64,000 nt of DNA from an uncultured Pseudohongiella sp. (GTDB lineage: Bacteria > Pseudomonadota > Gammaproteobacteria > Pseudomonadales > Pseudohongiellaceae), in NCBI GenBank assembly GCA_902537815.1, contig CACBCS010000001.1, positions 19,213 to 83,212 on the forward strand, given 5' to 3'. Below are positions 38,693-54,546 of the stretch, piece by piece. Numbering within the stretch: position 1 is the stretch's first letter; each line of letters opens with the position of its first letter. The notes beneath the pieces were generated by a model. That model saw nothing but the letters and a program-made list of their open reading frames with translations. It was not told where the DNA came from and did not search any database. The position numbers and the translations under genes are program-made.

Positions 38693-39220
38693 TCAGGGGT
38701 CGATGATTTCAACCCGACGGTTGCGCTGGTAGGCGGCATCACCGGTAGAGCGATCTGCTGGACGCTCTTCGCCATAACTGACGACCTCGATCTGATTGCG
38801 TGCAGCGCCGTTTACAATCAGATAGTTCAGAATGCCGTTCGCCCGTCGCTCGCCAAGTGCCAGGTTATATTCGCGGGTTCCCCGTTCGTCAGCATGACCT
38901 TCCAAGCGGACTCGCTTGCTAGGATTGGCGGCAAGGTCGCGGGCATGGTAGGTCAGCACATCGCGGTCTGATCCGCGGAATTCGGAAACGTCAAAATCGA
39001 AGTAGAAGATCCGGGTTGCCAGCGCAGACCGGCGTGCTCTTTCTTCTGCCGCGGCCGCAGCGGCTTCGGCGGCGCTCTGGCCGCTTTCGCTCGAGCTGTT
39101 GGTGGTCTGCTCAGTCTGGCTGCTGTCTGCAGCGGTGTCTTCGCTAGTCGAGCTACAGGCTGCAAGCCCGCCGAGCGCAAAGATAACAAAGGCCAATTTT
39201 GTCAGTTGAGTTATTTTCAT
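38693..39220 (-). CDS. OmpA-family peptidoglycan-associated lipoprotein (Pal-like)
   Basis: Lipobox LAAC, Ser/Ala-rich linker, and OmpA-like domain (LEGHADERGTREYNLALGERRA...NRRVEI). Start taken at the internal ATG. Not in a tol cluster. Confidence 0.8.
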   Translation of the reverse strand: MKITQLTKLAFVIFALGGLAACSSTSEDTAADSSQTEQTTNSSSESGQSAAEAAAAAAEERARRSALATRIFYFDFDVSEFRGSDRDVLTYHARDLAANPSKRVRLEGHADERGTREYNLALGERRANGILNYLIVNGAARNQIEVVSYGEERPADRSTGDAAYQRNRRVEIIDP

Positions 39221-39559
39221 GGCGACTCCAGAGATCAGAAGACCCGATTTAAAAAATAGAACCAATACAGTGTGTTAACTAGAGATGAAAGCATACTGCA
39301 TTTAATCGCGCAAATCTATTGGCCGCAAGCATTTTTCATCGTTCTCAGCGGGAATATTTGTGCTGACGCTCTGTCGTTACCGCTGCCCAGTTATTCGTCG
39401 AACGATCGTTCGGTTTTTGTTTCACTCCGCGGTCGGTGGTGGTAACCTTTCGATCCTGTGTTGGCGTGGTTTCAGTGTTGCCAATTTACATCGCAACAAG
39501 CACCGCAATTCCCCCACGCTGCCAATGACTCAAAAATTCCTGGTTTTAGGAGAAACGAC

Positions 39560-40759
39560 GTGAATGCTGATTTTACAGCCGAAGAACTGGCTTTTCAGGA
39601 AGAAGTTCGAGAGTTCCTGCAAAACGAATTCCCTGCTGACCTCAAGGCGAAGGTAGAAGCCAGTGTCCGCTTGGACAAGGATGACATGGTCCGCTGGCAA
39701 AAGATTCTGTTCAAAAAAGGCTGGGCAGCACCTACCTGGCCAGTTGAATATGGTGGCACGGGCTGGAGTCACACCAAAACTCACATCTTTGCGACCGAAT
39801 TGGGGCTTTACGGGGCACCGGAACCGATTCCATTCGGGATGAAAATGGTAGCGCCTGTCATCATGGCCTACGGCAGCGAAGAGCAGAAGCAGCGATTCCT
39901 GCCCGACATTTTGGAGAGTAACGTCTGGTGGTGCCAGGGATACTCCGAGCCTAACGCCGGATCCGATCTTGCGTCACTGAAGACTGCAGCGGTCCGCGAG
40001 GGAGATGAATATGTTGTCAACGGCAGCAAAACCTGGAATACGCTCGGCCAGTACGCGGACTGGATTTTTTGTCTGGTCCGGACGGACAACACCGTCAAGA
40101 AACAGGAAGGGATCAGTTTTCTGCTGATTAACATGAAAACGCCCGGCATCACGATCAAGCCAATCGTGCTTCTTGATGGGTTTCCGGAGGTCAACGAAGT
40201 TTTCTTCGATAACGTACGGGTTCCGGCAGAAAATTTGATCGGCGAGGAAAATAAAGGATGGACCTACGCAAAAGTGCTGCTTACCCACGAGCGCACCAAT
40301 ATTGCAGGGGTTCCCCGAGGCAAGCGCCGGCTGAAAGCGCTCAAGCGCATTGCAGGAGAGACCGAAGATGGCTTTGGCGCGAGCATGCTGGAAAATGCCT
40401 CGTTCAAGCAGCGGCTTGCGGAAATTGAAATTGAGTTGCAGGCTCTTGAGTACTCTGAACTTCGAACGCTGGCCGCATTGAGTGTGGGCAAAGCCCCTGG
40501 ACCTGAATCTTCGATTCTGAAGATAGTCGGCACTGAACTGGCACAGAAGATGGATGAAATGTTCGTTGAGCTGGCAGGTTATAACTGTCTCCCGTTCGTG
40601 CCCGAGCAGTTCGAATCCGGATTTGATGGCGATGCGATTGGTCCGGGCGATTCCGCGTCAGCAGCACTGACCTATTTTAATAATCGCAAGCTCTCGATCT
40701 TTGGTGGTTCCAATGAAATTCAGCGCAATATCATCACCAAAGCGGTACTGGGCCTGTAA
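39560..40759 (+). CDS. acyl-CoA dehydrogenase family protein (pair 1, first subunit)
   Basis: GTG start behind AGGAGA. YSEPNAGSD, and C-terminus IFGGSNEIQRN, where Gly replaces the usual YEG Glu. Confidence 0.85.
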   Translation: MNADFTAEELAFQEEVREFLQNEFPADLKAKVEASVRLDKDDMVRWQKILFKKGWAAPTWPVEYGGTGWSHTKTHIFATELGLYGAPEPIPFGMKMVAPVIMAYGSEEQKQRFLPDILESNVWWCQGYSEPNAGSDLASLKTAAVREGDEYVVNGSKTWNTLGQYADWIFCLVRTDNTVKKQEGISFLLINMKTPGITIKPIVLLDGFPEVNEVFFDNVRVPAENLIGEENKGWTYAKVLLTHERTNIAGVPRGKRRLKALKRIAGETEDGFGASMLENASFKQRLAEIEIELQALEYSELRTLAALSVGKAPGPESSILKIVGTELAQKMDEMFVELAGYNCLPFVPEQFESGFDGDAIGPGDSASAALTYFNNRKLSIFGGSNEIQRNIITKAVLGL

Positions 40760-40816
40760 GTAACAGATTAAGCGGAAGGGGCGGTCACAGGGTCGCCAAT
40801 AGCAGAGGTTTTAAAC

Positions 40817-41950
40817 GTGGATTTTTCTTATACAGAAGTACAACAGATGCTGCAGGACTCAGTGCAGAAATTTGTTCAGAAGAGTTATGACTTCGACACG
40901 CGCAATAAAATAATCGGCTCTGAAACAGGTTATAGTGCGGACAACTGGCAGTTGTTTGCGGAGCTGGGGTGGCTGGCGGTGCCATTCTCCGAGGAAGATG
41001 GCGGGCTCGGAGGGTCTGCTGTTGACCTGATGGTGATCATGGAGGAGTTTGGTAAAGCCAATCTTGTTGAACCCTATACGGCCACCGCAGTACTGGGTGG
41101 ATCGCTCGTTGCGAACCTGGCCACCGGTGAGCAGAAAGAAACACTGCTCGAAGGCGTTATTGGCGGCGAGCTGCAGATCGCTCCGGCACTGGCCGAGCCA
41201 AATGGTCGTTACAATCCAGCCAGTGTGTCGACTACGGCCACTGCTGACGGAGATCAGATCATACTCAACGGCACGAAAATCGCTGTTGAAAACGGCCCGA
41301 ATGCGGACACTCTGCTGGTGAGCGCCCGCGAGTCGGGGGAAATTCGGGACGTCGAAGGCATCTCTGTGTTCGCAGTTGAAGCAGGATCGCCCGGCGTGAA
41401 GATCAGAAAATATCGCACGGTAGACGGTAAGCAGGCGGCTGAAGTCACCCTTGATCACGTTTCAGTCGCAGCGAGCAATCGTTTGGGCGACGCAGGTGCC
41501 GCACTGCCGGGTATTGAATCCGCGCTGAACCGCTCAATCGTTGCTGTCAGTGCAGAAGCGGTAGGGTCCCTTGAAGTGCTGCTGCAGAAAACGGTTGAAT
41601 ACAGCAAAACCCGTAAGCAGTTCGGTACCGCTATCGGTACTTTTCAGGCCCTGCAGCATCGGATGGCTGACATGTTTATTCAGTGCCAGCTGGCCCGTTC
41701 AACCGTGATCATGGCGGCGATGTCTCTGGACAGTGATGATTCTTCCGATGAGAAGGCCAAGGCCGTGGCTGCTGCCAAAAGCCGTGTCGGGAAAGCCATA
41801 AAAAGCGTTGGTCAGGAAGCGATACAGATTCACGGCGGTATTGCCATGACTGAAGAGCTTGATGTGGGTCATCTGTTCAAGCGCGTAACCGCCCTGGATC
41901 TCGCCTACGGCGATGGCGATTATCATACTCAGCGCTTTGCCGCGCTCTAA
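40817..41950 (+). CDS. acyl-CoA dehydrogenase family protein (pair 1, second subunit, degenerate C-terminal motif)
   Basis: 377 aa with ACAD fold (IQIHGGIAMTEE). C-terminus LAYGDGDYHTQR lacks the YEGT Glu. Confidence 0.85.
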   Translation: MDFSYTEVQQMLQDSVQKFVQKSYDFDTRNKIIGSETGYSADNWQLFAELGWLAVPFSEEDGGLGGSAVDLMVIMEEFGKANLVEPYTATAVLGGSLVANLATGEQKETLLEGVIGGELQIAPALAEPNGRYNPASVSTTATADGDQIILNGTKIAVENGPNADTLLVSARESGEIRDVEGISVFAVEAGSPGVKIRKYRTVDGKQAAEVTLDHVSVAASNRLGDAGAALPGIESALNRSIVAVSAEAVGSLEVLLQKTVEYSKTRKQFGTAIGTFQALQHRMADMFIQCQLARSTVIMAAMSLDSDDSSDEKAKAVAAAKSRVGKAIKSVGQEAIQIHGGIAMTEELDVGHLFKRVTALDLAYGDGDYHTQRFAAL

Positions 41951-41964
41951 AAACCCCACGTCTG

Positions 41965-42672
41965 ATGAGCGAGCTCGTCTTTGTCCGCCATGGACAAGCT
42001 TCGTTCGGCGCAGCTTCCTACGATGCGCTGAGCGAGCGCGGCTTCGAGCAGGTACGTGAGCTTGCCAGGCACTGGCTGGAAACGGGAGAGTCATTTCAGG
42101 CTATCTACTCAGGGACTCTGCAACGACAAAGAGAAACGGCCGCCGAATTGGCTCCAGTGGTCAAGGATCAGGCCGCGCCGCAGCGCCTGGAATCTCTGAA
42201 TGAATACCATGGCGACCCGCTGATTCATATCTATCTGCGCGATCACGCCGCGCGGGAGGGTGTCGCGCCACCTGACGGGTGGCCGATTAAGGACAACAGA
42301 ACCTTTCAATCGGTCCTAGAAGCCGCCTCCGCCTGCTGGATCCGGGATGAGCTTGAACCTCAGGACTGCGATCAGGGATTCGAATATTGGCGAGACTTCA
42401 AGCAGCGGGTCTACGGGACAGTAGATCAGATTATGGCAGCACACAGCGGCGGCAGCAGGGTTCTTGTGTCAACCTCCGGTGGCGTGATCGCCACAGCGCT
42501 GCAGCGGGTGCTCGGATTTTCCGATCAGCAGGTGATTGCAACCAACTGGATGGTGCACAACAGTTCCGTTACCAAGGTGCGCTACGGGGGTGGCAGAATC
42601 TCTCTGAGCCAATTCAACAGCCTGCCTCATTTAGAGCGCCAGGATAAGCAACATCTGATAACCTACCGCTAA
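41965..42672 (+). CDS. histidine phosphatase (phosphoglycerate-mutase) family protein
   Basis: LVFVRHGQASF (RHG) motif. 235 aa. Confidence 0.8.
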   Translation: MSELVFVRHGQASFGAASYDALSERGFEQVRELARHWLETGESFQAIYSGTLQRQRETAAELAPVVKDQAAPQRLESLNEYHGDPLIHIYLRDHAAREGVAPPDGWPIKDNRTFQSVLEAASACWIRDELEPQDCDQGFEYWRDFKQRVYGTVDQIMAAHSGGSRVLVSTSGGVIATALQRVLGFSDQQVIATNWMVHNSSVTKVRYGGGRISLSQFNSLPHLERQDKQHLITYR

Positions 42673-42701
42673 ACATCCACCAATAATAAGGAAAATAAAG
42701 A

Positions 42702-43781
42702 TTGTCTAGTGTGGACCTGATTGACCGAGCCGGTGATATTCGTGCCGGCGAAGAACTTGATACTGACCGGCTGCGCGATTATCTGGAACCGATACTCGGA
42801 CCCGTGGCAAAAACTCTGGAAGTCACTCAGTTCCCTGGCGGACACTCAAATCTGACGTATCTCTTGTCTGCCGGCAATCAGCGGTGGGTACTGCGGCGTC
42901 CGCCGTTTGGCAGCAAGGTGAAATCAGCCCATGACATGTCCAGAGAGTATCGGATTCTTTCGGCTCTGAAAGATGAGTTTGCCTTCGGGCCTGTGCCGGA
43001 ACATTTCTGCGACGATCACGAGATTATTGGCTGTGATTTTTATCTGATGAACTGCATTGAGGGCCTGGTGATTCGCCGCGAGTATCCTGCCGGCCTTCAG
43101 TTAAGTCCGACTCAGATACGACAGCAGTTGTTGAATTTTTTTGACGTGCTTGCGGATCTCCATTCGGTGGATCTGGTAGCCGCCGGCCTGGACAGCTTCG
43201 GGCGGCCAGAGGGTTATGTGCGTCGTCAGGTTGAAGGCTGGTGTCGCCGCTGGGCCGACTCTGCAACGCCGAATACGGTTGACGTTTACGCCACCATGCA
43301 GTGGCTGCACGACAATATGCCTGCCGAAAGTGGCAAGGCCAGCGTGATTCACAATGATTACAAGCTGGATAATGTGATCTTCAGCGCCGACAACCCGCTT
43401 GAGGTTATCGGCGTGCTGGATTGGGAAATGGCTACTGTCGGAGATCCTCTGATGGACCTGGGCTGTACCTTGGGCTACTGGGTGCAGGTTTCCGATCCGG
43501 ATTTCTTCCGGGAGTCGCGTACCATGCCATCAGACATCGAAGGCGCGCCGACGCGGCGGGAAATTATCCGGAGATTTCAGGAAAAAACTGGCCTCTCTGT
43601 CGACAATTTTCCGTTCTACTTTTGCTTCGGCCTGTTCCGTTTGTGTGTGATCGGCCAGCAGATTTACTATCGCTACTATCACGGGCACACCAAAGATGAG
43701 CGTTTCGCGGGGTTTCTTAAGAAAGCATTCGTGCTCCAGCAGATGTGTGAACTGACTATCAAAGGTGAGGTGACAGACTGA
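42702..43781 (+). CDS. phosphotransferase (APH/choline-kinase-like) family protein
   Basis: 359 aa. Catalytic loop IHNDYKLDNVIF and LDWEMATVGDPLMD. Confidence 0.8.
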   Translation: MSSVDLIDRAGDIRAGEELDTDRLRDYLEPILGPVAKTLEVTQFPGGHSNLTYLLSAGNQRWVLRRPPFGSKVKSAHDMSREYRILSALKDEFAFGPVPEHFCDDHEIIGCDFYLMNCIEGLVIRREYPAGLQLSPTQIRQQLLNFFDVLADLHSVDLVAAGLDSFGRPEGYVRRQVEGWCRRWADSATPNTVDVYATMQWLHDNMPAESGKASVIHNDYKLDNVIFSADNPLEVIGVLDWEMATVGDPLMDLGCTLGYWVQVSDPDFFRESRTMPSDIEGAPTRREIIRRFQEKTGLSVDNFPFYFCFGLFRLCVIGQQIYYRYYHGHTKDERFAGFLKKAFVLQQMCELTIKGEVTD

Positions 43782-44572
43782 TGGGTGTCTCAATTAACGA
43801 GTTATTTAACGTGGCCGGTAAGGTGGCGGTCGTTACCGGAGGGTCGCGAGGCATCGGTCGGATGATCGCCGAGGCGTATGTTCAAAACGGCGTGAAGACC
43901 TACATCACTGCCCGAAAAGAGGCGGCCTGTCAGCAAACGGCGGATGAACTGAACCAAAAAGGAGACTGTGTTGCGCTGCCTGTGGATCTCTCAACGTCGG
44001 AGGGCAGAGAACAGTTTGTTTCCGAAATGAAAGCCCGGGAAAAGAAACTCGATATTCTGGTGAACAACGCCGGCGCTGCCTGGGGTGCTCCATTTGAGGA
44101 ATACCCAGACGAGGGCTATGACAAAGTCATGGAAATCAACGTAAAAGCCATTTTTATGTTAACCCGTGATCTGCTGCCTTTGCTGGAAGAGGGTGCCAGT
44201 CCGGATAACCCCAGTCGAGTGATCAATATCGGTTCCATAGACGGTCTGCGCGTTTCCACTACGGACAACTTCGCTTACGGGGCTAGTAAGGCGGCGGTGC
44301 ACTTTCTGACAAAGAATCTGGCAGTGCGCCTGGCGGGTAAAGGGCTGACCGTGAATGCAATTGCGCCCGGCCCGTTTGAGAGCAAAATGATGGACCATAT
44401 GCTTTCGCAGTTCAGAGATAAAATCGAAGCGGAAAATCCTCTGGGACGGATTGGCAACCCCACAGATATGGGGGGATTGGCCATCTATCTGGCCTCGCCG
44501 GCGACCAGTTACATGACAGGTCAGGTGATCGCGCTGGACGGTGGACGGCAGCTGGGTGCCAGACAAGACTAA
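43781..44572 (+). CDS. SDR family oxidoreductase
   Basis: 263 aa with TGGSRGIG, NNAG and YGASK. Its start overlaps the kinase stop. Confidence 0.9.
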   Translation: MGVSINELFNVAGKVAVVTGGSRGIGRMIAEAYVQNGVKTYITARKEAACQQTADELNQKGDCVALPVDLSTSEGREQFVSEMKAREKKLDILVNNAGAAWGAPFEEYPDEGYDKVMEINVKAIFMLTRDLLPLLEEGASPDNPSRVINIGSIDGLRVSTTDNFAYGASKAAVHFLTKNLAVRLAGKGLTVNAIAPGPFESKMMDHMLSQFRDKIEAENPLGRIGNPTDMGGLAIYLASPATSYMTGQVIALDGGRQLGARQD

Positions 44573-44663
44573 TTGCGCTGAAACCTTCCCAATGATCTCG
44601 GCTTGGTGCTACTGTAGTCTCTGGACTTAGCGCAAACCTCCCACTGTTGGTTGGCAGACTATC

Positions 44664-45320
44664 GTGAGCGACAATTCTTTACCTACCGTTCCCCGTGCCA
44701 TTGTTGCCGCTATGGCGTTCGCCAGCGGCTTCTGCATCATGACAGTGGAAATGCTGGGTGCGCGTATCCTTTCGCCATATTTTGGCGGGAGCCTTTCTGT
44801 ATGGGGCAGCATCATTACAATCTTTATGTTAGCGCTGGCGCTGGGGTATTTGTGGGGTGGCAAACTGTCCGCGCGTAAACCCAGCGCAATAACCTTTGCC
44901 GGATTTTTCATCGGGGCGGCAGTCTTCTCCATTCCCATTATTGTTTTCTCGGATGCGATTATGGAGCCGATTTTTATGGCGCTGGAGGACCCTCGTTATG
45001 GTTCTTTGTTTGCTGCCATATTCCTGTTCTTTATTCCGACGAGTATCCTCGGCATGATTTCGCCTTACGCGGTTCGGCTCATGGTGCAGAACGAAGCCCA
45101 CAGCGGGCAGATGGCGGGTTTACTCTACTTTATCTCTACGCTGGGAAGCGCAGCCGGAACCCTCGGGACCAGTTTTTATTTCGTGCTCTGGTTTGAGGTC
45201 AATCAAATTTTATGGGGTGCTATCTTTACTCTCCTGCTTGCTGGTCTGGTAATACTTGCGGCGCATTATTTCGGGAAGGATAAGAGGGCAGCGCATGCCG
45301 AGGCAGTCAATTGTGCGTAA
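44664..45320 (+). CDS. polytopic membrane protein resembling the membrane module of fused MFS/spermidine-synthase proteins
   Basis: 218 aa, about 6-7 TM. ARILSPYFGGSLSVWGSIITIFMLALALGY block. Confidence 0.55.
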   Translation: MSDNSLPTVPRAIVAAMAFASGFCIMTVEMLGARILSPYFGGSLSVWGSIITIFMLALALGYLWGGKLSARKPSAITFAGFFIGAAVFSIPIIVFSDAIMEPIFMALEDPRYGSLFAAIFLFFIPTSILGMISPYAVRLMVQNEAHSGQMAGLLYFISTLGSAAGTLGTSFYFVLWFEVNQILWGAIFTLLLAGLVILAAHYFGKDKRAAHAEAVNCA

Positions 45321-46212
45321 ATCAATGCTGTTTGTATCTGCGATAAGCGCGCTGTTAAGCAGTGTGCCGGCAGGCGTGGTCGCCGCAGAAACTATCCATG
45401 AGGAGCGCTCCAAATATCGGGATATCACTGTCACTGAGGTTGGGAACAGGCGCTGCTTGCTGTTTAACGTGCATCGGGGTGATCGTAATCAGACCTGTGT
45501 TCTGGTCAATGACAAGCAGCGGCTCGTGTTTGACTACACCCGCATGAGTTTTGCGGGTCTGTTGCTCAATGATCGCCCTGAGAGCATTCTGGTGATCGGC
45601 CTGGGAGGCGGCTCTATTCCTCTGACCTTCGCTGATCTGTTTCCCGACGCCCGGATTGATGTCGTTGAAATCGATGAGGCCGTAGTCAGTGTTGCGGAGG
45701 AATTTTTCTTCTTCGAAGAAACCGAGAATATGGCGGTTTACGTCGATGACGGCCGGCCATTTATCAAGCGAGCAGGAATCAGGCGGGAGAAATATGACTA
45801 CATCGTGCTGGATGCTTTCAGCGGCGATTATATTCCCGAGCACATGCTGACCCGCGAATTTCTGGATGAAGTGAGAAACATCATGCGACCGGAGTCGGTG
45901 CTGGTCGCCAATACCTTCTCAACCAGCAGGCTTTACGATCATGAGTCGGTGACCTATCAGCGAGCCTTTGGTGAGTTCTTTAATTTCAAGTTACCCACCA
46001 CAGGAAACCGGATAATCATTACCCAGCTGGAGCCTTTGCCTCCCAGAGCCCAGCTGGTGGAAAAAGCCCAGTCGTTTGCAGGTCGTTTGGAGAAATACGG
46101 CGTCCCCATCCTCGAGTACCCCTCGAGGCTGTCCACGCGGGTCGATTGGGACATGAGCCGCAGGCAACTCACCGATCAATACGCTCCGGCTAACCTGCTA
46201 CGAGGCAAATGA
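45295..46212 (+). CDS. spermidine-synthase-like SAM methyltransferase-fold protein with N-terminal signal/anchor
   Basis: ILVIGLGGGSIP and VVEIDEAVV SAM-binding motifs, plus DAFSGDYIPEHM. Start uncertain. ORF overlaps the preceding gene in another frame. Confidence 0.65.
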   Translation: MPRQSIVRKSMLFVSAISALLSSVPAGVVAAETIHEERSKYRDITVTEVGNRRCLLFNVHRGDRNQTCVLVNDKQRLVFDYTRMSFAGLLLNDRPESILVIGLGGGSIPLTFADLFPDARIDVVEIDEAVVSVAEEFFFFEETENMAVYVDDGRPFIKRAGIRREKYDYIVLDAFSGDYIPEHMLTREFLDEVRNIMRPESVLVANTFSTSRLYDHESVTYQRAFGEFFNFKLPTTGNRIIITQLEPLPPRAQLVEKAQSFAGRLEKYGVPILEYPSRLSTRVDWDMSRRQLTDQYAPANLLRGK

Positions 46213-46338: not shown

Positions 46339-47487
46339 TTAAGAAAAATCCCGCATCATGTTCCGAGCGATAATGACCTGCTGAATCTGGCTGGTTCCCT
46401 CGTAAAGCCTGAACAGACGCACGTCCCGGTAGAAGCGCTCTACCGCATATTCAGACATATAGCCAGCTCCTCCATGGATCTGAACTGCGCGATCCGCGAC
46501 GCGGCCGACCATTTCAGTGGCAAACAGCTTGCAGGCAGAAGACTCGGTGCTCACGTTCTCTCCGCTGTCGCGTTTTCTGGCGGTTTCAAGGGTCATGCAT
46601 TTCGCGGCGTAGGTCTCAGTCTGTGAGTCTGCCAGCATGCCCTGTATCAGTTGTTGTTCAGCAATTGGTTTGCCAAATTGTTTGCGCTGCAGAGCGTATT
46701 CAAGCGAGTCGTGAATCAGTCGCTCAGCGACGCCTACGCTCACGCCGGAAATGTGCAGGCGGCCCCGGTCCAGAACTTTCATCGCTGTCACGAAGCCTTC
46801 ACCCTCCTCTCCGATCAGATTTTCGGCGGGCACCCTGCAGTCCTCAAAAATTACATCACAGGTCATGGAGCCGGCTTGCCCCATTTTTTTGTCTACTGAG
46901 CCAAGGGTAATTCCCGGGGTTTCCCGCTCAACGATGAAAGAAGAGATGCCCCTCGCTCCCTTATTGTCCGGGTCGGTCCGCGCCATCACGTTGAAGGTGT
47001 GTGCAACCTTAGCATTGGTGATATAGCGTTTGGTTCCGTTCAGAACATAATGATCGCCATCCCTGACCGCGGCGGTTTTCAGTGAGGCGGCATCAGAACC
47101 GGCTTCCGGTTCCGTGAGACAAAAGCAGGAGATCCATTCGCCTGAGGCGTATTTCGGCAGATACTTCTGCTTTTGTTCCTCTGTGCCATTAAACACCACT
47201 GCCGCAGAGCCGATGCCGTTGTTCGTTCCCATGATGGAGCGAAAAGCGGGGGATGTTCTTCCCAGGGCGATGGAAACCAGGATTTCCTCTTCCATGGTCA
47301 GGCCGAGACCGCCGTACTCTTCCGGAATGGTGAGCCCGAAGAGTCCCAGAGCTTTCATCTCTTCGAGAATGTCGTCAGGTAGCCTGCCTTCGGTAGCCAG
47401 ACGCTCTTCATTAGGTACAAGTCTCTCCCTGACAAAGCGTTCAATCAGATCGACAAGCTGCTTAATTGTTTCCTGATCCCTGATCAT
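46339..47487 (-). CDS. acyl-CoA dehydrogenase (canonical short/medium-chain type)
   Basis: 382 aa. CLTEPEAGSD and canonical LYEGTSQIQ. Confidence 0.9.
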   Translation of the reverse strand: MIRDQETIKQLVDLIERFVRERLVPNEERLATEGRLPDDILEEMKALGLFGLTIPEEYGGLGLTMEEEILVSIALGRTSPAFRSIMGTNNGIGSAAVVFNGTEEQKQKYLPKYASGEWISCFCLTEPEAGSDAASLKTAAVRDGDHYVLNGTKRYITNAKVAHTFNVMARTDPDNKGARGISSFIVERETPGITLGSVDKKMGQAGSMTCDVIFEDCRVPAENLIGEEGEGFVTAMKVLDRGRLHISGVSVGVAERLIHDSLEYALQRKQFGKPIAEQQLIQGMLADSQTETYAAKCMTLETARKRDSGENVSTESSACKLFATEMVGRVADRAVQIHGGAGYMSEYAVERFYRDVRLFRLYEGTSQIQQVIIARNMMRDFS

Positions 47488-47730: not shown

Positions 47731-48951
47731 ATGTCTGAAACTGCCTTAACCGATGCGTTTATCTACGACGGCATCAGAACGCCCTTCGGGCGCCATGCAG
47801 GTGCCCTTGCGCCGGTCCGACCAGACGATCTTTTGGCTCATGTCATCAGAACGGTAGTCGAAAAAAATGATTTCCCGAAGGAAGCCTTTGAGGATGTTAT
47901 TGCCGGTAACACAAACCAGGCCGGAGAAGATTGCCGGAATGTTGGACGCTTTGCGTCGCTGCTTGCAGGGATGCCCGTTGAGGTTGGCGGACTGACGGTT
48001 AACCGACTGTGTGCCTCCGGCCTGGCGGCGACCCTGCACGCTGCGAATTCGGTGAAAATACGCGAAGGAGAACTGTTCGTGGCAGGCGGCGTGGAATCTA
48101 TGAGCCGCGCTCCCCTGGTGTTGTCCAAGGCGCACGGGCCTTATGACCGTGGTCAATCACTGGCAGACAGTACTCTGGGCGCCCGATTTACCAACCCCGC
48201 CTTCGCTGCCGGGTTTGGTAATGACACGATGCCGGAAACAGCAGACAACATCGCGTCGGACGTCGAGATTTCCCGGGGAGACAGCGACCGCTTTGCTGCG
48301 GCTTCTCAGGCGAAATATGAAGCCGCGCGCGCGGACGGTTTTTTTGCAAATGAAATAGTTGCCATCGATGTGCCCCAGGGAAGAAAAAAACCGCCAGTTT
48401 CCGTCGCCACGGACGAGCACCCCCGGCCCCAAACCACGCTTGAATCATTGTCCGGACTGCGAACGCTGTTCGATAACGGTGTCGTTACCGCTGGGAATGC
48501 CTCAGGGATCAATGACGGAGCTGCCGCACTGATAGTTGGGAGTCGTGAAGTAGGTGAGCGCTATGGAGTCAAACCCAGGGCTCGCATCGTGGCGGGCGCG
48601 GTCGCCGGTGTCGAGCCCCGGGTGATGGGTTTTGGTCCGGTCTTTGCGATTCAGAAAGCCCTCGGGCGAGCGAGCCTGCGGCTGTCGGATATGGACATTA
48701 TTGAAATCAACGAAGCCTTCGCCTCCCAGGTGCTTGGCTGTCTCAAGTTGCTTGATGTTGATTTTTCGGATTCACGCGTTAATCCCAATGGCGGTGCCAT
48801 TGCCGTCGGACATCCTCTTGGTGCTTCTGGTGCGCGGATTGCCCTGACGGCCATGCGGCAGCTGGAACGGAGCGGTGGGCGCTATGCGGCCATCAGTCTG
48901 TGTATCGGTATCGGTCAGGGGTTGGCGGCAATTCTGGAACGAGTTGACTGA
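47731..48951 (+). CDS. acetyl-CoA C-acyltransferase (thiolase)
   Basis: 406 aa. NRLCASGL active-site Cys, and NPNGGAIAVGHPLGASG / CIGIGQG C-terminal motifs. Confidence 0.9.
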   Translation: MSETALTDAFIYDGIRTPFGRHAGALAPVRPDDLLAHVIRTVVEKNDFPKEAFEDVIAGNTNQAGEDCRNVGRFASLLAGMPVEVGGLTVNRLCASGLAATLHAANSVKIREGELFVAGGVESMSRAPLVLSKAHGPYDRGQSLADSTLGARFTNPAFAAGFGNDTMPETADNIASDVEISRGDSDRFAAASQAKYEAARADGFFANEIVAIDVPQGRKKPPVSVATDEHPRPQTTLESLSGLRTLFDNGVVTAGNASGINDGAAALIVGSREVGERYGVKPRARIVAGAVAGVEPRVMGFGPVFAIQKALGRASLRLSDMDIIEINEAFASQVLGCLKLLDVDFSDSRVNPNGGAIAVGHPLGASGARIALTAMRQLERSGGRYAAISLCIGIGQGLAAILERVD

Positions 48952-48982
48952 AATACTTTCATTTAAAAAGTAAGGAATAAAT

Positions 48983-51094
48983 ATGTCGGAAGTTGTGAGT
49001 TATCAGCTAAAGGAAAACATTGGTGTCATTGTGGTAAGCAGCCCACCGGTAAATGCGCTGTCGCAATCTGTGCGTGTAGGAATTCTTGACGCTGTCAATC
49101 AGGCGCAGGAGGACAGCTCAGAGGCAATCGTGCTGCGCTGTGATGGTCGTACCTTCATTGCTGGCGCCGACATCAGTGAGTTCGGTCAGCCGCCAAAGGT
49201 ACCCGGGCTGCCCGAGGTCCTTTCGGCGATAGAAAACTCAAGTAAGCCGGTGATCGCGGCAATTCATGGCACTGCCCTCGGAGGTGGATTTGAAGTTTCT
49301 CTGGCCTGTCACTATCGCTGCGCGATTGCTTCAGCGAAAGTGGGTTTGCCAGAGGTCAAATTGGGTCTTCTTCCGGGTGCTGGCGGAACGCAGCGAGTAC
49401 CCCGGCTTGCGGGTGTCAAGGCAGCCCTGGACATGATAACCGGAGGTAATCCAATTTCTGCCGCCAAGGCCAAAGACATGGGGCTGATTGATGAAGTGCT
49501 GACTGGCGAGGATGTGGAGAGCAGTGCGATCGCCTATGCGCAGGAATCGCAGCGAACAGGTGCGCCTCTGAAACGTGTACGCGACATTACGATCGACCCA
49601 GCCACAGTGGAGGCTGGATTCTTTGATGAAGCCAGAGCCCGGTTGGCAAAACGGGCACGCGGGCAGATCGCGCAAGACCGCATTGTTTCCTGTCTGGAGG
49701 CCGCGGTGAGTCTGCCAATGGATGAAGGTTTGGCAAGAGAGCGTGAATTATTCGGCGAACTGGTGACATCTCCTGAGTCAGCGGCAATGCGCCACATATT
49801 CTTCGCGGAGCGTCTGGCTGCCAAGATCAAGGACCTGCCGAAAGATACGGCCACCAGAGACATCAGGAAAGTGGCTATTATCGGTGGTGGCACAATGGGT
49901 GGAGGCATCGCCATGTGCTTTGCCGGAGCTGGCATACCGGTGGTGCTGGTTGAGGTTGATGACGAGGCGCTGGAGCGTGGTCTTGGCATTATCCGCAAGA
50001 ATTACTCCATAACCGTACAGAAGGGCAAACTCAGCGAAGACAAGATGGAGCAGCTGATCAGCACGATCAGTGGTACGACCAGCTATGACGACATTGCTGA
50101 TGTGGATCTGGTCATTGAGGCAGTGTTTGAAAACCTGGACCTCAAAAAAGAAATCTTCGCGAAACTCGATTCGGTCTGCAAGGCCGGAGCCATTCTTGCA
50201 ACTAACACGTCCTATCAGGATGTCGATGCGATTGCTGCGGCGACGGGTCGGCCTGAGGATGTTGTTGGGATGCATTTCTTTTCCCCTGCCAATGTCATGA
50301 AGCTGCTGGAAGTGGTTCGGGGAGACCGAACCGCAGACGATGCTCTGGCAACGGCCATGGCGATTGGCAAGAAAATCGGCAAAGTGTGTGCGCTGTCAGG
50401 CGTATGCTACGGGTTTATCGGTAATCGGATGCTTGGCGGCTATGGCAGGGAGGCGCAGATGTTGTTGCTTGACGGCTGCCCGCCGGCGCAGGTCGATTCC
50501 GCCCTGGAGAAATTTGGTATGGCGATGGGTCCACTGGCTATGGGCGATCTTGCGGGTCTCGACGTGGGGTACAAAGCAAGACAGGCGCGGACGGATCTGC
50601 CTGATGACCCGAAGCTTTATCGCATGGGCACTTTACTGGTCGAAATGGGGCGCTTTGGCCAGAAAACCGGTTCAGGATTCTATACCTATGATCCCGAGAC
50701 CCGCCGCCGTCAGTCGGATCCCCAAATAGAATCACTGATCAAGACGGAAGCCGCTAAGCTGGACGTTGAGCAACGCGATGTGACAGAGGATGAAATTCTG
50801 GCCCGCTGTTTCTATCCCCTCATCAATGAAGGAGCGAAAATTCTTCAAGAAGGCATTGCGCAACGGCCCAGCGACATCGATGTGGTGTATGTATTTGGCT
50901 ATGCCTTTCCGGTCGCCAAAGGTGGGCCGATGTTCTACGCAGACCAGGTTGGTCTGAAAAATGTGTATGACAAAATTTGCGAGTTTCGTGACCGCTACGG
51001 TGAGCAGTACTGGCAACCCGCACCGCTGCTTGAACAGCTGGCAAAAGAAGGTAAGACTTTTGCTGAATGGGACAGAGAAAGGAGTCTGGCGTAA
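48983..51094 (+). CDS. bifunctional enoyl-CoA hydratase / 3-hydroxyacyl-CoA dehydrogenase (FadB/FadJ-like)
   Basis: 703 aa. Crotonase N-terminus (AAIHGTALGGGFE) and HACD Rossmann fold (VAIIGGGTMGGGIA). Confidence 0.9.
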   Translation: MSEVVSYQLKENIGVIVVSSPPVNALSQSVRVGILDAVNQAQEDSSEAIVLRCDGRTFIAGADISEFGQPPKVPGLPEVLSAIENSSKPVIAAIHGTALGGGFEVSLACHYRCAIASAKVGLPEVKLGLLPGAGGTQRVPRLAGVKAALDMITGGNPISAAKAKDMGLIDEVLTGEDVESSAIAYAQESQRTGAPLKRVRDITIDPATVEAGFFDEARARLAKRARGQIAQDRIVSCLEAAVSLPMDEGLARERELFGELVTSPESAAMRHIFFAERLAAKIKDLPKDTATRDIRKVAIIGGGTMGGGIAMCFAGAGIPVVLVEVDDEALERGLGIIRKNYSITVQKGKLSEDKMEQLISTISGTTSYDDIADVDLVIEAVFENLDLKKEIFAKLDSVCKAGAILATNTSYQDVDAIAAATGRPEDVVGMHFFSPANVMKLLEVVRGDRTADDALATAMAIGKKIGKVCALSGVCYGFIGNRMLGGYGREAQMLLLDGCPPAQVDSALEKFGMAMGPLAMGDLAGLDVGYKARQARTDLPDDPKLYRMGTLLVEMGRFGQKTGSGFYTYDPETRRRQSDPQIESLIKTEAAKLDVEQRDVTEDEILARCFYPLINEGAKILQEGIAQRPSDIDVVYVFGYAFPVAKGGPMFYADQVGLKNVYDKICEFRDRYGEQYWQPAPLLEQLAKEGKTFAEWDRERSLA

Positions 51095-52131
51095 TGCTGT
51101 CGTATCAAACCGGAGCGCCGGGTACCCCGTTACTTGAGGTTGAATCAGAAACCCCTGCACCCACCGGGACAGAGGTGCTGATAAAGACTGTTGCTTGTGG
51201 AGTCTGCCATTCAGATATTCACCTCCATGACGGCAGATTCGAACTTGGTGGAGGCAAGGTGCTGAATGTTGGCCGTGAAGGGCATGTGCTTGGGCATGAA
51301 ATTTTCGGGGAAGTGGTCGCAGTCGGACCGGATGCGCAGGACGCTGCTGTGGGGGACCGCCGGGTCGTCTACCCATGGATAGGCTGCGGTGAATGCGCGG
51401 TGTGTCAGCGTGGTGAGGAGCACCTGTGTACCCCGGGTCGGGCTCTGGGCATTGTGGCTGCAGGTGGTTTCGCCACACATGTGCTGATACCCCACAGTCG
51501 CTACTTGTTCGACAAAGGAGCGGTGCCGGACGCGTTGGCAGCCACCTATGCCTGTTCAGGGCTGACAGCCTATGGCGCGATCAAAAAGCTGGGCAAGCTG
51601 AACCCGGCAGACGAGGTGGTCATCATCGGTGCCGGGGGCGTCGGGATGATGGCGATTCAGATAGCCAGGGCGTTGGGAATTGATCCGATTGTCGTTGACA
51701 TTGACCCAGCGAAACTTGAAGCAGCCCAACGACTGGGTGTGACGCGCACCTACGACTCATCAGATATAGATTCTGCGAAAACAATTCGAAAGGCGAACGG
51801 CGGGGTTTATGCTGCGCTGGATTTTGTCGGTGCAGAATCCAGTGTTAATTATGGGCTCGCTACGCTGCGCAAAGGAGGCATGCTGCTTGTCGTCGGTCTG
51901 TTTGGCGGTGCACTGAGCTTGCCTATCCCTTTTCTGCCAATGAACGCCCGGGTGATTCAGGGCAGCTATGTGGGCAGTCCTGAGGACATGGCGGAGCTGA
52001 TGATGATGGTGCGTGAGGGCAAGATAGCGCCCATCGACATCCAGGAGCGTCCGCTCTCCGAGGCCAGTTTTGCCCTGGCAGACTTAAAACAAGGTAAAGT
52101 GAAAGGCCGGCAGGTTCTGATAGTAGACTGA
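51094..52131 (+). CDS. zinc-dependent alcohol dehydrogenase family protein
   Basis: GVCHSD, GHE and CGECAVC zinc sites, plus GAGGVG. ATG overlaps the upstream TAA by 1 nt. Confidence 0.85.
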   Translation: MLSYQTGAPGTPLLEVESETPAPTGTEVLIKTVACGVCHSDIHLHDGRFELGGGKVLNVGREGHVLGHEIFGEVVAVGPDAQDAAVGDRRVVYPWIGCGECAVCQRGEEHLCTPGRALGIVAAGGFATHVLIPHSRYLFDKGAVPDALAATYACSGLTAYGAIKKLGKLNPADEVVIIGAGGVGMMAIQIARALGIDPIVVDIDPAKLEAAQRLGVTRTYDSSDIDSAKTIRKANGGVYAALDFVGAESSVNYGLATLRKGGMLLVVGLFGGALSLPIPFLPMNARVIQGSYVGSPEDMAELMMMVREGKIAPIDIQERPLSEASFALADLKQGKVKGRQVLIVD

Positions 52132-52154
52132 ATGTTCCAAAAAGGAGAAAAGCA

Positions 52155-53384
52155 TTGCTAGCATTAGAGCAATTCCGGGATTCAACCCGTGTCTGGCTGG
52201 AGGAGAACTGTCCTCCCAGTATGCGTACCCCCATGGTGCCGGAAGAAATTGTGTGGGGCGGTCGTAATGCGGACTTTACCAATCCCGAAAGCAAGCTCTG
52301 GCTGGACAGGATGGCCGAGAAAGGCTGGACCTGCCCAACCTGGCCTGCCGAGTACGGTGGCGGAGGTCTGAGTAGCGAAGAGGCGAAAATACTCGCTGAA
52401 GAGTTGGCGCGCATCAATGCGCGCATCGCCTTGACCAGTTTTGGCATCAGCATGCTTGGACCAGTACTGCTGGAATACGGCACTCACGAGCAGAAAATGG
52501 AGCATATTCCCAAAATAATCCGCGGTGAGATCCGCTGGTGCCAGGGATACTCGGAACCAGGTTCCGGTTCAGATCTGGCCAGTCTGGGTACCAAAGCGAC
52601 TCTTGAGGGCGATGAGTACGTTGTTAACGGCTCAAAAGTCTGGACTTCCTATGCGGATAAAGCCGACTGGATATTTTGTCTGGTTCGAACGGATTTTGAG
52701 GTCCCCAAGCATTCCGGCATCAGTTTTCTGCTGTTCGACATGAAGAGTGAAGGGGTCAGCACGAAACCGATTCAGCTCATCAGTGGCTCCTCTCCATTCT
52801 GTGAAACGTTCTTTGATGACGTGCGGGTGCCGGCCGCGAATCTGATGGGCAGGCTGAATGAAGGCTGGTCCATTGCCAAGCGTCTGCTACAGCACGAGAG
52901 AACCATGATTTCCGGATTCGGGCTGGCCAGCGGGCAGGGCGATCGCGGCGGAACCACTTCCACGACTGCGAGTCTGGAGGGGGCTGCCATGCATTACAGA
53001 GAGGATAAGGATCGCCTCACTGATCCTGCTCTGCGTGATCAGATTGCTCAATTTAAGATTGACAGTGAAGCCTTTGCGCTAACTTCGCAGCGTTCCAGCG
53101 AAGAGAGTAAGCAGGGTGGGCCGAATGCGACTTCCTCTATGCTAAAATATTACGGCTGTGAGCTCAATAAGCGACGGTACGAGCTTTTCCTTAAGGCAAT
53201 GGGGAGCCAGGGGCTTGGCTGGGAAGGAGACGAGTTTGAGGCAGAAGAGCTGCAGGTTACCCGTGAGTGGTTGCGCTCCAAAGCCAATTCTATCGAGGGC
53301 GGGACGGCTGAAGTCCAGCTGAACATTGTGGCTAAACGTGTTCTCGGGCTGCCGGACATGATGAGTCTCGCCGGTAAGAAATAG
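52155..53384 (+). CDS. acyl-CoA dehydrogenase family protein (pair 2, first subunit)
   Basis: 409 aa, paralogous to 39560..40759 (KGW..PTWP.EYGG, YSEPGSGSD). The C-terminus SIEGGTAEVQ retains the Glu. Confidence 0.85.
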   Translation: MLALEQFRDSTRVWLEENCPPSMRTPMVPEEIVWGGRNADFTNPESKLWLDRMAEKGWTCPTWPAEYGGGGLSSEEAKILAEELARINARIALTSFGISMLGPVLLEYGTHEQKMEHIPKIIRGEIRWCQGYSEPGSGSDLASLGTKATLEGDEYVVNGSKVWTSYADKADWIFCLVRTDFEVPKHSGISFLLFDMKSEGVSTKPIQLISGSSPFCETFFDDVRVPAANLMGRLNEGWSIAKRLLQHERTMISGFGLASGQGDRGGTTSTTASLEGAAMHYREDKDRLTDPALRDQIAQFKIDSEAFALTSQRSSEESKQGGPNATSSMLKYYGCELNKRRYELFLKAMGSQGLGWEGDEFEAEELQVTREWLRSKANSIEGGTAEVQLNIVAKRVLGLPDMMSLAGKK

Positions 53385-53391
53385 GAATAAA

Positions 53392-54546
53392 GTGGTTATG
53401 GCGATGGTATTGAGTGAAGACCAACAGCTGCTCAGAGATTCAGCCAGGAGTTTCTGTCAGGACAACGCACCGATCTCAGTGATGCGTCGCCTCAGAGACG
53501 GGAAATCAGAGCTTGGCTACGACGAAGCCATCTGGCAGCAAATGATCGAGCTTGGATGGCCGGGAATGGCAATTGCTGAAAAGTATGGAGGCTTTGAATT
53601 TGGCTACACCGGACTCGGTCTGGTTCTGGAAGAAACCGGCCGTACCCTTGCCAGTTCACCTCTTATAGCTTCGGTTCTTTTGGGTGCCAGTCTGTTGTCT
53701 GAAGCGGGTGATGAAGAGAAAAAGTCCCAGCTCCTCCCTCAAATTGTTAATGGTAAACTGCGTCTGGCTGTCGGTGTTGATGAGGGACCGCATCACAATC
53801 CGTCGCGAGTCGCATGCACAGCGATAAAGCAAGGCGCCGAATATGTGCTCACCGGAGCGAAAAGCTTTGTCCTTGACGGCCACATTGCAGGCAAACTGAT
53901 TGTTGCTGCGCGTACATCCGGTGAACCGGGCTCAGAGAACGGAATCAGCCTGTTTTTGCTGGAAGCGGGCTGTCAGGGCCTGCAGATTCAGAGAACCCAA
54001 ATGGTAGACAGTCGCAATGCGGCCAATCTGGTGCTGGATCAGGTCCGGATCTCTGAAGATTCTCTGCTCGGTTCGGAAGGAGCGGGATTTACGGCTTTGG
54101 ATGCTGCGCTGGATATTGCGCGTATCGGGGTTGCCTCAGAGATGCTTGGCAGTGTGCAGGAGGTTTTCCAGCGCATTGTTGAGTATCTGAAACAGCGGGA
54201 GCAGTTCGGCGTGCAGATCGGTGCGTTTCAGGCGCTGCAGCATCGGGCGGCTGAGATGTACAGTGAGATTGAACTCTGTAAATCGGCAGTTCTCGGCGCT
54301 TTGCGATGTCTGGACAATTCTTCGGCTACCGCGAAAGACCGTGCCCGCATGGCCAGTCTCGCGAAAGCGAAACTGAGTGAAGTCTCAGAAAGAGTCAGCA
54401 ACGAAGGGATTCAGATGCATGGCGGCATCGGAATGACCGATGAATTTGATATCGGTTTTTTTCTGAAGCGGGCAAGAGTGGCACAGCAGTTTCTGGGTGA
54501 CGCCTCCTTCCATCGCGACCGTTACGCAACGCTGCATAATTTCTGA
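53392..54546 (+). CDS. acyl-CoA dehydrogenase family protein (pair 2, second subunit, degenerate C-terminal motif)
   Basis: 384 aa with ACAD fold (IQMHGGIGMTDE). C-terminus QQFLGDASFHRD lacks the YEGT Glu. Confidence 0.85.
   Translation: MVMAMVLSEDQQLLRDSARSFCQDNAPISVMRRLRDGKSELGYDEAIWQQMIELGWPGMAIAEKYGGFEFGYTGLGLVLEETGRTLASSPLIASVLLGASLLSEAGDEEKKSQLLPQIVNGKLRLAVGVDEGPHHNPSRVACTAIKQGAEYVLTGAKSFVLDGHIAGKLIVAARTSGEPGSENGISLFLLEAGCQGLQIQRTQMVDSRNAANLVLDQVRISEDSLLGSEGAGFTALDAALDIARIGVASEMLGSVQEVFQRIVEYLKQREQFGVQIGAFQALQHRAAEMYSEIELCKSAVLGALRCLDNSSATAKDRARMASLAKAKLSEVSERVSNEGIQMHGGIGMTDEFDIGFFLKRARVAQQFLGDASFHRDRYATLHNF

Follow-up and report, generated by a model that had tools for sequence, protein, structure and literature searches.

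A route that processes 4-hydroxyacyl-CoA with a small-molecule kinase and an acyl-CoA dehydrogenase (ACAD) of the ACAD11 type is already established in Pseudomonas, Burkholderia and mammals. 4-Hydroxyacyl-CoA kinase activity has been shown for ACAD10/ACAD11 and for the Burkholderia pseudomallei orthologue, and has been reported for LvaA (PMC12440821, PMC11342911). The lva operon funnels 4-oxo and 4-hydroxy acids into β-oxidation via 4-phosphoacyl-CoA (PMC6692424, PMC11342911). Elimination of the phosphate by ACAD10/11 needs the R626/H634/R637 cluster and a catalytic aspartate, features that are common to LvaC (Rashan et al., PMC12440821). Here we describe a five-gene array containing a kinase of this family, located in a 64,000-nucleotide stretch (the window) of contig CACBCS010000001.1 from an uncultured Pseudohongiella sp. 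(GCA_902537815.1). On balance, we favor the reading that 4-hydroxyacyl-CoA is processed here by a bacterial route of the ACAD10/ACAD11 (lva-like) type which has been split, with one half encoded in the window.

Gene array

Five open reading frames (ORFs) on the same strand are found at 39458/39560-44572:

39560..40759, + strand: acadL, 399 aa from GTG 39560; PimC/ChsE4-like catalytic (α) subunit of a two-subunit ACAD
40817..41950, + strand: acadS, 377 aa; PimD/ChsE5-like non-catalytic (β) subunit
41965..42672, + strand: hisP, 235 aa; histidine-phosphatase fold, distinct subfamily, conserved partner of the kinase
42702..43781, + strand: aph, 359 aa; ACAD10/ACAD11/LvaA-family small-molecule kinase, predicted 4-hydroxyacyl-CoA kinase
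43781..44572, + strand: short-chain dehydrogenase/reductase (SDR), RhlG-like, PRK08213 class; its start overlaps the kinase stop

The first ORF opens at GTG 39458. An AGGAG is located 7 nt before GTG 39560, and the latter is the likely start of acadL because this AGGAG precedes it and homologues align from that residue. From acadL to aph the intergenic gaps are 57, 14 and 29 nt, and the stop of the kinase overlaps the start of the SDR in the TGATG at 43779-43783. Three Pfam ACAD domains are matched in each of acadL and acadS. The motifs quoted in the original prediction, RHG (within 'FVRHGQASF') and 'IHNDYKLDN', are both present, and its description of five packed co-directional genes with a kinase/SDR overlap is confirmed by the ORFs, the Pfam matches and the TGATG. 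The five genes look like one operon. The acadL-acadS-hisP-aph array is kept in seven Pseudohongiellaceae genera, down to 61% kinase identity, and is thus not a chance juxtaposition.

Kinase of the ACAD10/ACAD11/LvaA type

The product of aph matches Pfam APH (PF01636) at an E-value of 7e-47. Its closest solved relative is PDB entry 9o56 (1.6e-85), which we take to be the Caldalkalibacillus thermarum protein of a preprint discussed below, as presumed from the description given there. The kinase domain of mouse ACAD11 (8v3v) is matched at 2.9e-46 and 3dxp at 6.9e-46. In contrast, a macrolide phosphotransferase is matched at only 5e-7, homoserine kinase at 2e-5 and APH(3') at 6e-4, and macrolide, aminoglycoside, thiamine and homoserine kinases lie at about 1e-4 to 1e-8 against the window kinase. 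An antibiotic (aminoglycoside or macrolide) kinase and a homoserine kinase are ruled out on these E-values. Judged from its sequence, the protein is a clear member of the ACAD10/ACAD11/LvaA-type family, as had been proposed, and does not group with aminoglycoside or homoserine kinases.

The kinase retains the H-x-D-x-K...N loop ('IHNDYKLDN'), 'LDWEM', the β3 arginine that replaces lysine ('VLRRPP') and the R-E pair of helix αC ('SREY'). In the alignment to ACAD11, 'S-R-E' corresponds to 'D-R-E' and 'VRRQVEGW' to 'CKRQVSTW', so that the equivalent of ACAD11 R176 is kept. It should be mentioned that the arginine next to the αC glutamate and R176 were assigned as CoA contacts by molecular dynamics modelling, not by mutagenesis (PMC12440821). 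No second member of this kinase family was found in the window genome, a 71%-complete metagenome-assembled genome (MAG).

The adjacent acyl-CoA dehydrogenase pair

The original prediction regarded the two ACADs as counterparts of LvaC. A close examination of their sequences points to a different type of enzyme. The best NCBIfam match of acadL is pimC_large (TIGR03204; 472.7 bits, below the equivalog cut-off of 623.85), and that of acadS is pimD_small (TIGR03203; 376.5 bits, below the cut-off of 652.7). The best PDB match of acadL is 4x28_A (ChsE4/FadE26, 4e-57), and the glutamate of its 'THER' motif aligns with ChsE4 Glu247, at a helix-G position used also by IVD and LCAD (PMC11153573). At the MCAD position acadL has a glycine ('IFGG'). 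No glutamate or aspartate is present in acadS at either catalytic-base position ('LAYGDG', 'ALNRS'), consistent with the division of roles between the α and β subunits of heteromeric ACADs (PMC11153573).

At the site of the R626/H634/R637 cluster, which reads RLGPGRIHHCMR in ACAD10/11, acadL has LLTHERTNIAGV and acadS has ALNRSIVAVSAE; neither carries the phosphate-binding motif. The ACAD domain of ACAD11 ranks far down among the matches, at 3e-18. A phosphate eliminase formed by acadL/acadS is ruled out, since the cluster and the catalytic aspartate are missing. With the ChsE4-type glutamate in the α subunit, no base in the β subunit and the eliminase signature absent, the pair is assigned from these residues as a conventional α2β2 dehydrogenase and not as an equivalent of LvaC.

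These observations bear directly on the possibility that the five genes form a self-contained lva-like module, in which one or both adjacent ACADs eliminate phosphate from 4-phosphoacyl-CoA as LvaC does. The tight packing in one direction, the preservation of acadL-acadS-hisP-aph over seven genera, and the repeated occurrence of α2β2 pairs no more than 7 kb away from a kinase/ACAD11-type module in a number of unrelated lineages speak for such a module. However, both ACADs lack the residues for elimination and are closest to PimC/PimD and ChsE4/ChsE5, no kinase fusion with a PimC/D-type domain was obtained, and all family genomes with the kinase retain a genuine ACAD11-type gene at another place. 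We therefore consider a self-contained module very unlikely.

ACAD11-type enzyme on a second contig

The search of the window genome by tblastn and by motif returned exactly one ACAD11-type gene, on the minus strand of another contig, C3 (G000:C3:57675-58892). The encoded protein matches ACAD11 at 1e-123 and PDB entry 4hr3 at 2.8e-139. It carries GRLGPGRIHHCMR and 'LRLADGPDEVH', the signature of the R/H/R cluster and the catalytic aspartate. By these residues the C3 gene is identified as the LvaC/ACAD11-type enzyme of the window genome. Hence the window does not hold the same toolbox as the lva and ACAD10/ACAD11 systems, as had been suggested; the LvaC-type component is encoded on C3.

The C3 array consists of a family III CoA-transferase, SDR 'b', SDR 'a' and the ACAD11-type gene, and the pair of SDR 'a' and the ACAD11-type gene is kept in 8/8 family genomes examined. 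The SDR of the window matches Pfam adh_short_C2 at 1e-56 and RhlG (PDB 2b4q) at 2e-71, and is 49% identical to SDR 'b'. It follows the kinase directly only in closer relatives (kinase identity of about 74% or more), and is a lineage-specific addition.

A family-2 glycosyltransferase gene adjoins the ACAD11-type gene in this genome (G000:C3:49000-67000, L082) and in three of the eight family genomes examined, and does so also in an unrelated Saprospiraceae locus (loci listed: L247, L248, L251 and L078).

Linkage of kinase and ACAD11-type genes in other bacteria

The neighborhood of the kinase outside Pseudohongiellaceae was examined within 3.5 kb in a kinase-seeded sample of 53 loci, described as unbiased. 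An ACAD11-type gene was found in 42 of them, hisP in 13 and acadL/S in none. The ACAD next to the kinase in other phyla matches ACAD11 at 3e-85 and has the eliminase signature. In addition, about 45 metagenomic proteins combine an N-terminal ACAD11-type domain with a C-terminal kinase domain that is 43-52% identical to the window kinase, a domain order that is the reverse of the one in eukaryotic ACAD10/11. Further fusions join the kinase to an SDR, to an SDR plus an ACAD11-type domain, to a zinc-dependent alcohol dehydrogenase (Zn-ADH), to an AMP-dependent ligase domain (PF00501), or to an SGL-type domain of the lactonase kind. The search for longer kinase-containing proteins gave no fusion to a PimC/D-type domain.

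The SGL β-propeller fusions are P0049-P0054 (Geodermatophilus, Blastococcus), and fusions to SDR, Zn-ADH or PF00501 domains are among P0028/P0040/P0041/P0045/P0050, P0047 and P0057. An enzyme described as having this same SMP-30/gluconolactonase/LRE-like domain hydrolyses γ-valerolactone to 4-hydroxyvalerate (PMC9843451). Two further features were seen near ACAD11-type genes. A TetR regulator lies between the ACAD11-type and kinase genes in four loci, mostly of Desulfobacterota type (L028:6252-6977, L031:1401-2084, L037:6261-6986 and L052:6294-6995). In a Thermoanaerobaculia locus (L063:5132-5773), the ACAD11-type-kinase pair is immediately preceded by a gene for a HAD hydrolase, reminiscent of the HAD domain in ACAD10.

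Within the family, closed genomes of the same genus each have a single kinase gene and a single ACAD11-type gene, separated by 238-580 kb. In the 81 family genomes surveyed, the same 7 of 11 genera contain all four of kinase, hisP, acadL and ACAD11-type gene. This co-occurrence is compatible with a shared pathway and is no proof of one.

In a tree of 116 kinases, two deep clades are resolved, and in each of them some kinases adjoin an ACAD11-type gene and some adjoin hisP. Those of Pseudohongiellaceae group together with 100* support, and this clade is nested within kinases encoded next to ACAD11-type genes. The splitting of an ancestral module is the simplest history of the layout in this family. 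The deep clade that consists mainly of Oxalobacteraceae/Burkholderiaceae-type and Alcanivorax kinases does not include the window kinase, whose identity to these proteins is 30-36%. Three genera have a second kinase, from the other deep clade, adjoined by its own hisP paralogue. Such a second hisP-kinase pair is present in family genomes G002, G004, G013, G020, G023, G033, G041, G049, G056, G063, G070 and G076; both of its genes are about 35% identical to those of the window, and it is linked neither to the first pair nor to the ACAD11-type gene.

Histidine-phosphatase-like partner

The hisP product matches Pfam His_Phos_1 (PF00300) at 5e-21. Its AlphaFold2 model (pLDDT 95.7) has the standard branch-1 histidine phosphatase fold, with a Foldseek probability of 1.00 to iPSP, PhoE, CobC and PGAM5. 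The nearest folds are small-molecule phosphatases, iPSP (4ij5), HFP (9mmh) and PhoE (1h2e), with TM values of 0.65-0.70. R8, H9, R54 and E80 are invariant in 56 hisP sequences. The second pocket histidine is replaced by an invariant Ser171 ('TSGG'), at the place where two canonical paralogues of the same genome have 'SHG'/'THG'. The subfamily has the signature RHGQAS...TSGG...HLE...TYR and comprises 1809 clusters at 50% identity (E of 1e-30 or better). [T/S/C]-S-[G/A]-G is carried by 145 of its 150 best representatives, most of which end in T-Y/F-R.

The gene is located directly upstream of the kinase in 45 of the 47 family genomes that hold a kinase orthologue. When hisP itself was used as the seed across several phyla, 36 of 72 loci had the kinase and/or an ACAD11-type gene adjacent, including loci from Desulfobacterota, Marinobacter, Alcanivorax, Amycolatopsis and Syntrophomonadaceae. 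Typical orders are hisP-ACAD11type-kinase-SDR(a-type) and ACAD11type-SDR-kinase-hisP-SDR. These data support hisP-kinase as a conserved unit within the module, and the proposal that the phosphatase is a dedicated companion of the kinase is borne out by this recurrence. It is noted that about half of the hisP family is unlinked to the module, for example in Acidovorax, Steroidobacteraceae and Halopseudomonas, where its neighbors encode a pyridoxal-phosphate enzyme, an aldehyde dehydrogenase, a peptidase and an amidase. The statement that a role for this phosphatase had not been described holds for its function, but its presence in an lva-like cluster has already been published (PMC6692424).

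Fusions of hisP to the kinase or to an ACAD were not found in the following searches, which are weak evidence against their existence. The single-sequence search for longer proteins gave no match, and the corresponding profile search gave one unrelated 540-aa protein (PF01028+PF00300) and no kinase or ACAD fusion. The 150 best matches of the full profile scan are all stand-alone proteins of 222-311 aa. The ESM Atlas returned only generic 'histidine phosphatase / PhoE' cluster names.

In human ACAD10, the role of the HAD domain beside this kinase is disputed, being described as an allosteric brake (PMC11342911) or as a lipid-phosphate phosphatase (2026 preprint, 10.1101/2025.09.10.675409). Our preferred guess, a tentative one, is that hisP dephosphorylates intermediates that have reached a dead end, for example free 4-phospho-acids or a stereoisomer that is not processed. 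A regulatory, non-hydrolytic role towards the kinase may also be considered, and is rather doubtful. It is also possible, if somewhat unlikely, that the 4-hydroxyacyl-CoA kinase system of bacteria always requires hisP as a third component, which proofreads or recycles phospho-intermediates or gates the kinase. It would then be a non-homologous counterpart of the ACAD10 HAD domain and of LvaB; in one sampled lineage its place is taken by a HAD hydrolase. The hisP-kinase unit would have been re-wired to an α2β2 ACAD in Pseudohongiellaceae, hinting at a second substrate class.

Proposed pathway

In the proposed route, the window kinase would phosphorylate the 4-hydroxyl of 4-hydroxyacyl-CoA, as suggested by its family membership. 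The unlinked C3 flavoenzyme would then eliminate the phosphate to give a 2-enoyl-CoA. This step is assigned to the C3 enzyme because it has the signature residues and because the two families are adjacent or fused elsewhere. The 2-enoyl-CoA would enter ordinary β-oxidation; a thiolase and a FadJ-like enzyme for this are likewise encoded in the window. Interconversion of 4-oxo- and 4-hydroxyacyl-CoA, as by LvaD, is the probable task of the SDRs, of which one follows the kinase and two lie beside the C3 gene.

Several points weigh against this reading. The kinase and the eliminating enzyme are unlinked here and located on different contigs, so that we can only infer their partnership, and the source genome is a MAG of 71% completeness. 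The presence/absence profile over the 81 genomes cannot separate the hypotheses, since the four genera without the module hold few ACADs of any kind. The second catalytic histidine is absent from hisP, and a futile cycle would result if the phosphatase hydrolysed what the kinase makes. There is also no demonstrated reason for the stable linkage to acadL/S in one operon. Finally, prokaryotic kinases of this family, including a C. thermarum protein with a crystal structure, are reported to phosphorylate 1-O-alkylglycerol in vitro (2026 preprint, 10.1101/2025.09.10.675409).

The last point raises the alternative that hisP-kinase acts on lipid alcohols, as a 1-O-alkylglycerol or monoacylglycerol kinase with a lipid-phosphate phosphatase, similar to the ether-lipid salvage model for ACAD10; the β-oxidation genes would then serve merely to degrade the chains set free. 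Chimyl-alcohol kinase activity, in some cases stimulated by acetyl-CoA, is reported for several of the prokaryotic homologues (Ye et al., 10.1101/2025.09.10.675409), presumably including 9o56 (1.6e-85), the solved structure nearest to the window kinase. A phosphatase domain is likewise paired with the kinase in ACAD10, and a hormone-sensitive-lipase-type esterase is encoded 1 kb upstream of the array. However, a divergent Pal gene sits between this esterase and the operon, and the modelled CoA-holding arginines are conserved in the kinase. The family mostly adjoins or is fused to ACAD11-type, SDR, AMP-dependent ligase and SGL domains, which fits acyl-CoA/4-hydroxy-acid chemistry, and the preprint itself leaves the relation of the two activities open (10.1101/2025.09.10.675409). 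We consider a lipid-alcohol pathway improbable, and retain the split 4-hydroxyacyl-CoA route.

Association of acadL/acadS with the kinase

A separate question is what the α2β2 pair contributes. In every acadL-seeded locus long enough to show it, acadS follows acadL. Their orthologues (55-67% identity) are paired throughout Proteobacteria, mostly without the kinase (about 62 of 71 acadL-seeded loci). In about 9 of the 71, and additionally in Alcanivorax and Parahaliea, an α2β2 pair is found within 7 kb of a kinase/ACAD11-type module, in varied arrangements.

The juxtaposition may be without specific meaning, the hisP-kinase unit having landed in a general β-oxidation island whose ACAD pair serves other substrates, for example dicarboxylyl-CoAs as PimCD does. 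This would be compatible with the assignment of the kinase and would deny only a shared pathway. It agrees with the stand-alone occurrence of acadL/acadS in most Proteobacteria sampled, with their absence from all 53 kinase-seeded loci outside the family, and with the wealth of β-oxidation genes in the window, including a second PimC/D-like pair and a thiolase at the level of 3-oxoadipyl-CoA thiolase. However, the four genes keep their order and spacing over seven genera, down to 61% kinase identity, and α2β2 pairs adjoin the module in independent arrangements in Anaeromyxobacteraceae, Oxalobacteraceae, Burkholderiaceae, Sphingomonadaceae, Alcanivorax and Parahaliea. A mere coincidence of location is thus unlikely in our view.

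Since acadL/S share an operon with hisP and the kinase in the whole family, the acyl-CoAs that they dehydrogenate probably belong to the same substituted class, bulky or with a hydroxy or carboxy terminus, an assignment that we make with low confidence. It may be speculated that the window island handles ω-oxidised fatty acids. Even-carbon ω-hydroxy acids would be degraded through β-oxidation to 4-hydroxybutyryl-CoA, a type of substrate for the kinase route.

Other features of the window

Further features around the array are:

39399..39412, no strand assigned: palindrome of 14 nt without mismatch, CGAACGATCGTTCG, with a T-run (GTTTTTGTTT) after it; acadL lies about 150 nt downstream
46339..47487, - strand: conventional homomeric-type ACAD with a glutamate at the MCAD position, in 'RLYEGTSQIQ'
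47731..54546, + strand: β-oxidation island, from NCBIfam matches
47731-48951, + strand: thiolase, at the level of 3-oxoadipyl-CoA thiolase (648.6 bits against a cut-off of 622)
48983-51094, + strand: FadJ/FadB-like bifunctional enzyme
51067-52131, + strand: Zn-ADH
52155-53384 and 53392-54546, + strand: second PimC/PimD-like pair (293.7 and 232.7 bits)

The palindrome lies in the region common to acadL and the divergent Pal gene and is a possible operator. It was also flagged by the terminator scan, and no + strand gene precedes it. The promoter/terminator scan of 39200-44800 gave counts near the shuffled expectation and was uninformative. The esterase at 37619-38596 belongs to the hormone-sensitive-lipase family and is LipP1-like (296 bits, below the cut-off of 350). 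Its position upstream of the operon is conserved in closer relatives, with the divergent Pal lipoprotein gene in between. At 44664-46212, a 'fused MFS/spermidine synthase' (NF037959) is encoded in two parts: its membrane half and its SpeE-like half are on separate ORFs that overlap and differ in frame, and the two halves are matched separately in all close relatives too. The island at 47731-54546 resembles the pim (dicarboxylate) gene set minus the ligase.

Significance and comparison with known systems

The locus represents a known pathway in a lineage-specific split arrangement and adds no new pathway. It adds a clean natural case in which the kinase and the eliminating enzyme are unlinked, in which the kinase keeps only a phosphatase-like partner as a constant neighbor, and in which the hisP-kinase unit has long been fixed behind a conventional two-subunit ACAD. 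It also provides a tractable system, in a bacterium, in which the function of a phosphatase-fold partner next to the kinase can be studied. For annotation, it is a warning that an ACAD adjoining an APH kinase is not automatically 'LvaC-like'.

We have compared the components with those of described systems. The acadL/acadS pair resembles PimCD of R. palustris and ChsE4-ChsE5 of M. tuberculosis (PDB 4x28) in its tandem arrangement, in the helix-G glutamate of the α subunit, in the β subunit without a base, and in the Pro-rich loop 'GAPEPIPF' of acadL. It differs from them in scoring below the PimC/PimD cut-offs and in having no adjacent steroid or pimA-type ligase genes.

Two prokaryotic kinases are informative for the window kinase. 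PDB entry 9o56, presumably the C. thermarum homologue of the ACAD10 kinase, is its closest solved relative and shares the H-x-D-x-K, N, DWE, β3-Arg and αC-Glu elements. The C. thermarum protein is reported to act in vitro as an acetyl-CoA-stimulated 1-O-alkylglycerol kinase (10.1101/2025.09.10.675409). The stand-alone kinase and ACAD of Burkholderia pseudomallei are unfused as in the present genome, can replace the ACAD10 halves in vitro, and are the closest biochemically tested bacterial model (Paquay et al., PMC11342911). The window kinase is in the other deep clade from Burkholderiaceae-type kinases, in a tree that was built without the B. pseudomallei protein itself.

By its description (PMC6692424, PMC11342911), the lva operon of P. 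putida KT2440 (LvaA kinase, LvaB, LvaC, LvaD and LvaE) shares with the present genome a kinase of the same branch, an ACAD eliminase and an SDR. The lvaA-B-C-D-E layout under LvaR is not reproduced here; of the lva protein families, just the kinase and the SDR are represented in the array. Gaps of at most 57 nt could not accommodate a gene the size of lvaB, the array has neither a CoA ligase gene nor an LvaR/σ54 regulator gene nearby, the LvaC-type gene is unlinked on C3, and a family III CoA-transferase is present at the C3 locus where lva has a ligase. The levulinate-induced cluster of P. citronellolis LA18T resembles the window in having a histidine phosphatase gene beside the kinase gene, in the place of lvaB (PMC6692424). 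That gene is located between the LvaA and LvaC homologues, and its function was left open (Habe et al. 2019, PMC6692424). In contrast to the present arrangement, the LvaC homologue is in the same cluster there, and the phosphatase has 218 aa.

The mammalian ACAD10/ACAD11 proteins (PDB 8v3u, 8v3v and 2wbi; PMC12440821, PMC11342911) differ from the present system in that the kinase and the ACAD11-type enzyme are here separate proteins encoded on different contigs. The kinase is here co-operonic with an unrelated α2β2 ACAD, and its partner has a histidine-phosphatase fold instead of the HAD fold found in ACAD10. However, their N-terminal kinase domain has a homologue in the window kinase (2.9e-46), their ACAD domain has one in the C3 enzyme (1e-123), with the same R/H/R cluster and catalytic aspartate, and ACAD10, like the Pseudohongiella array, places a phosphatase-fold domain beside the kinase.

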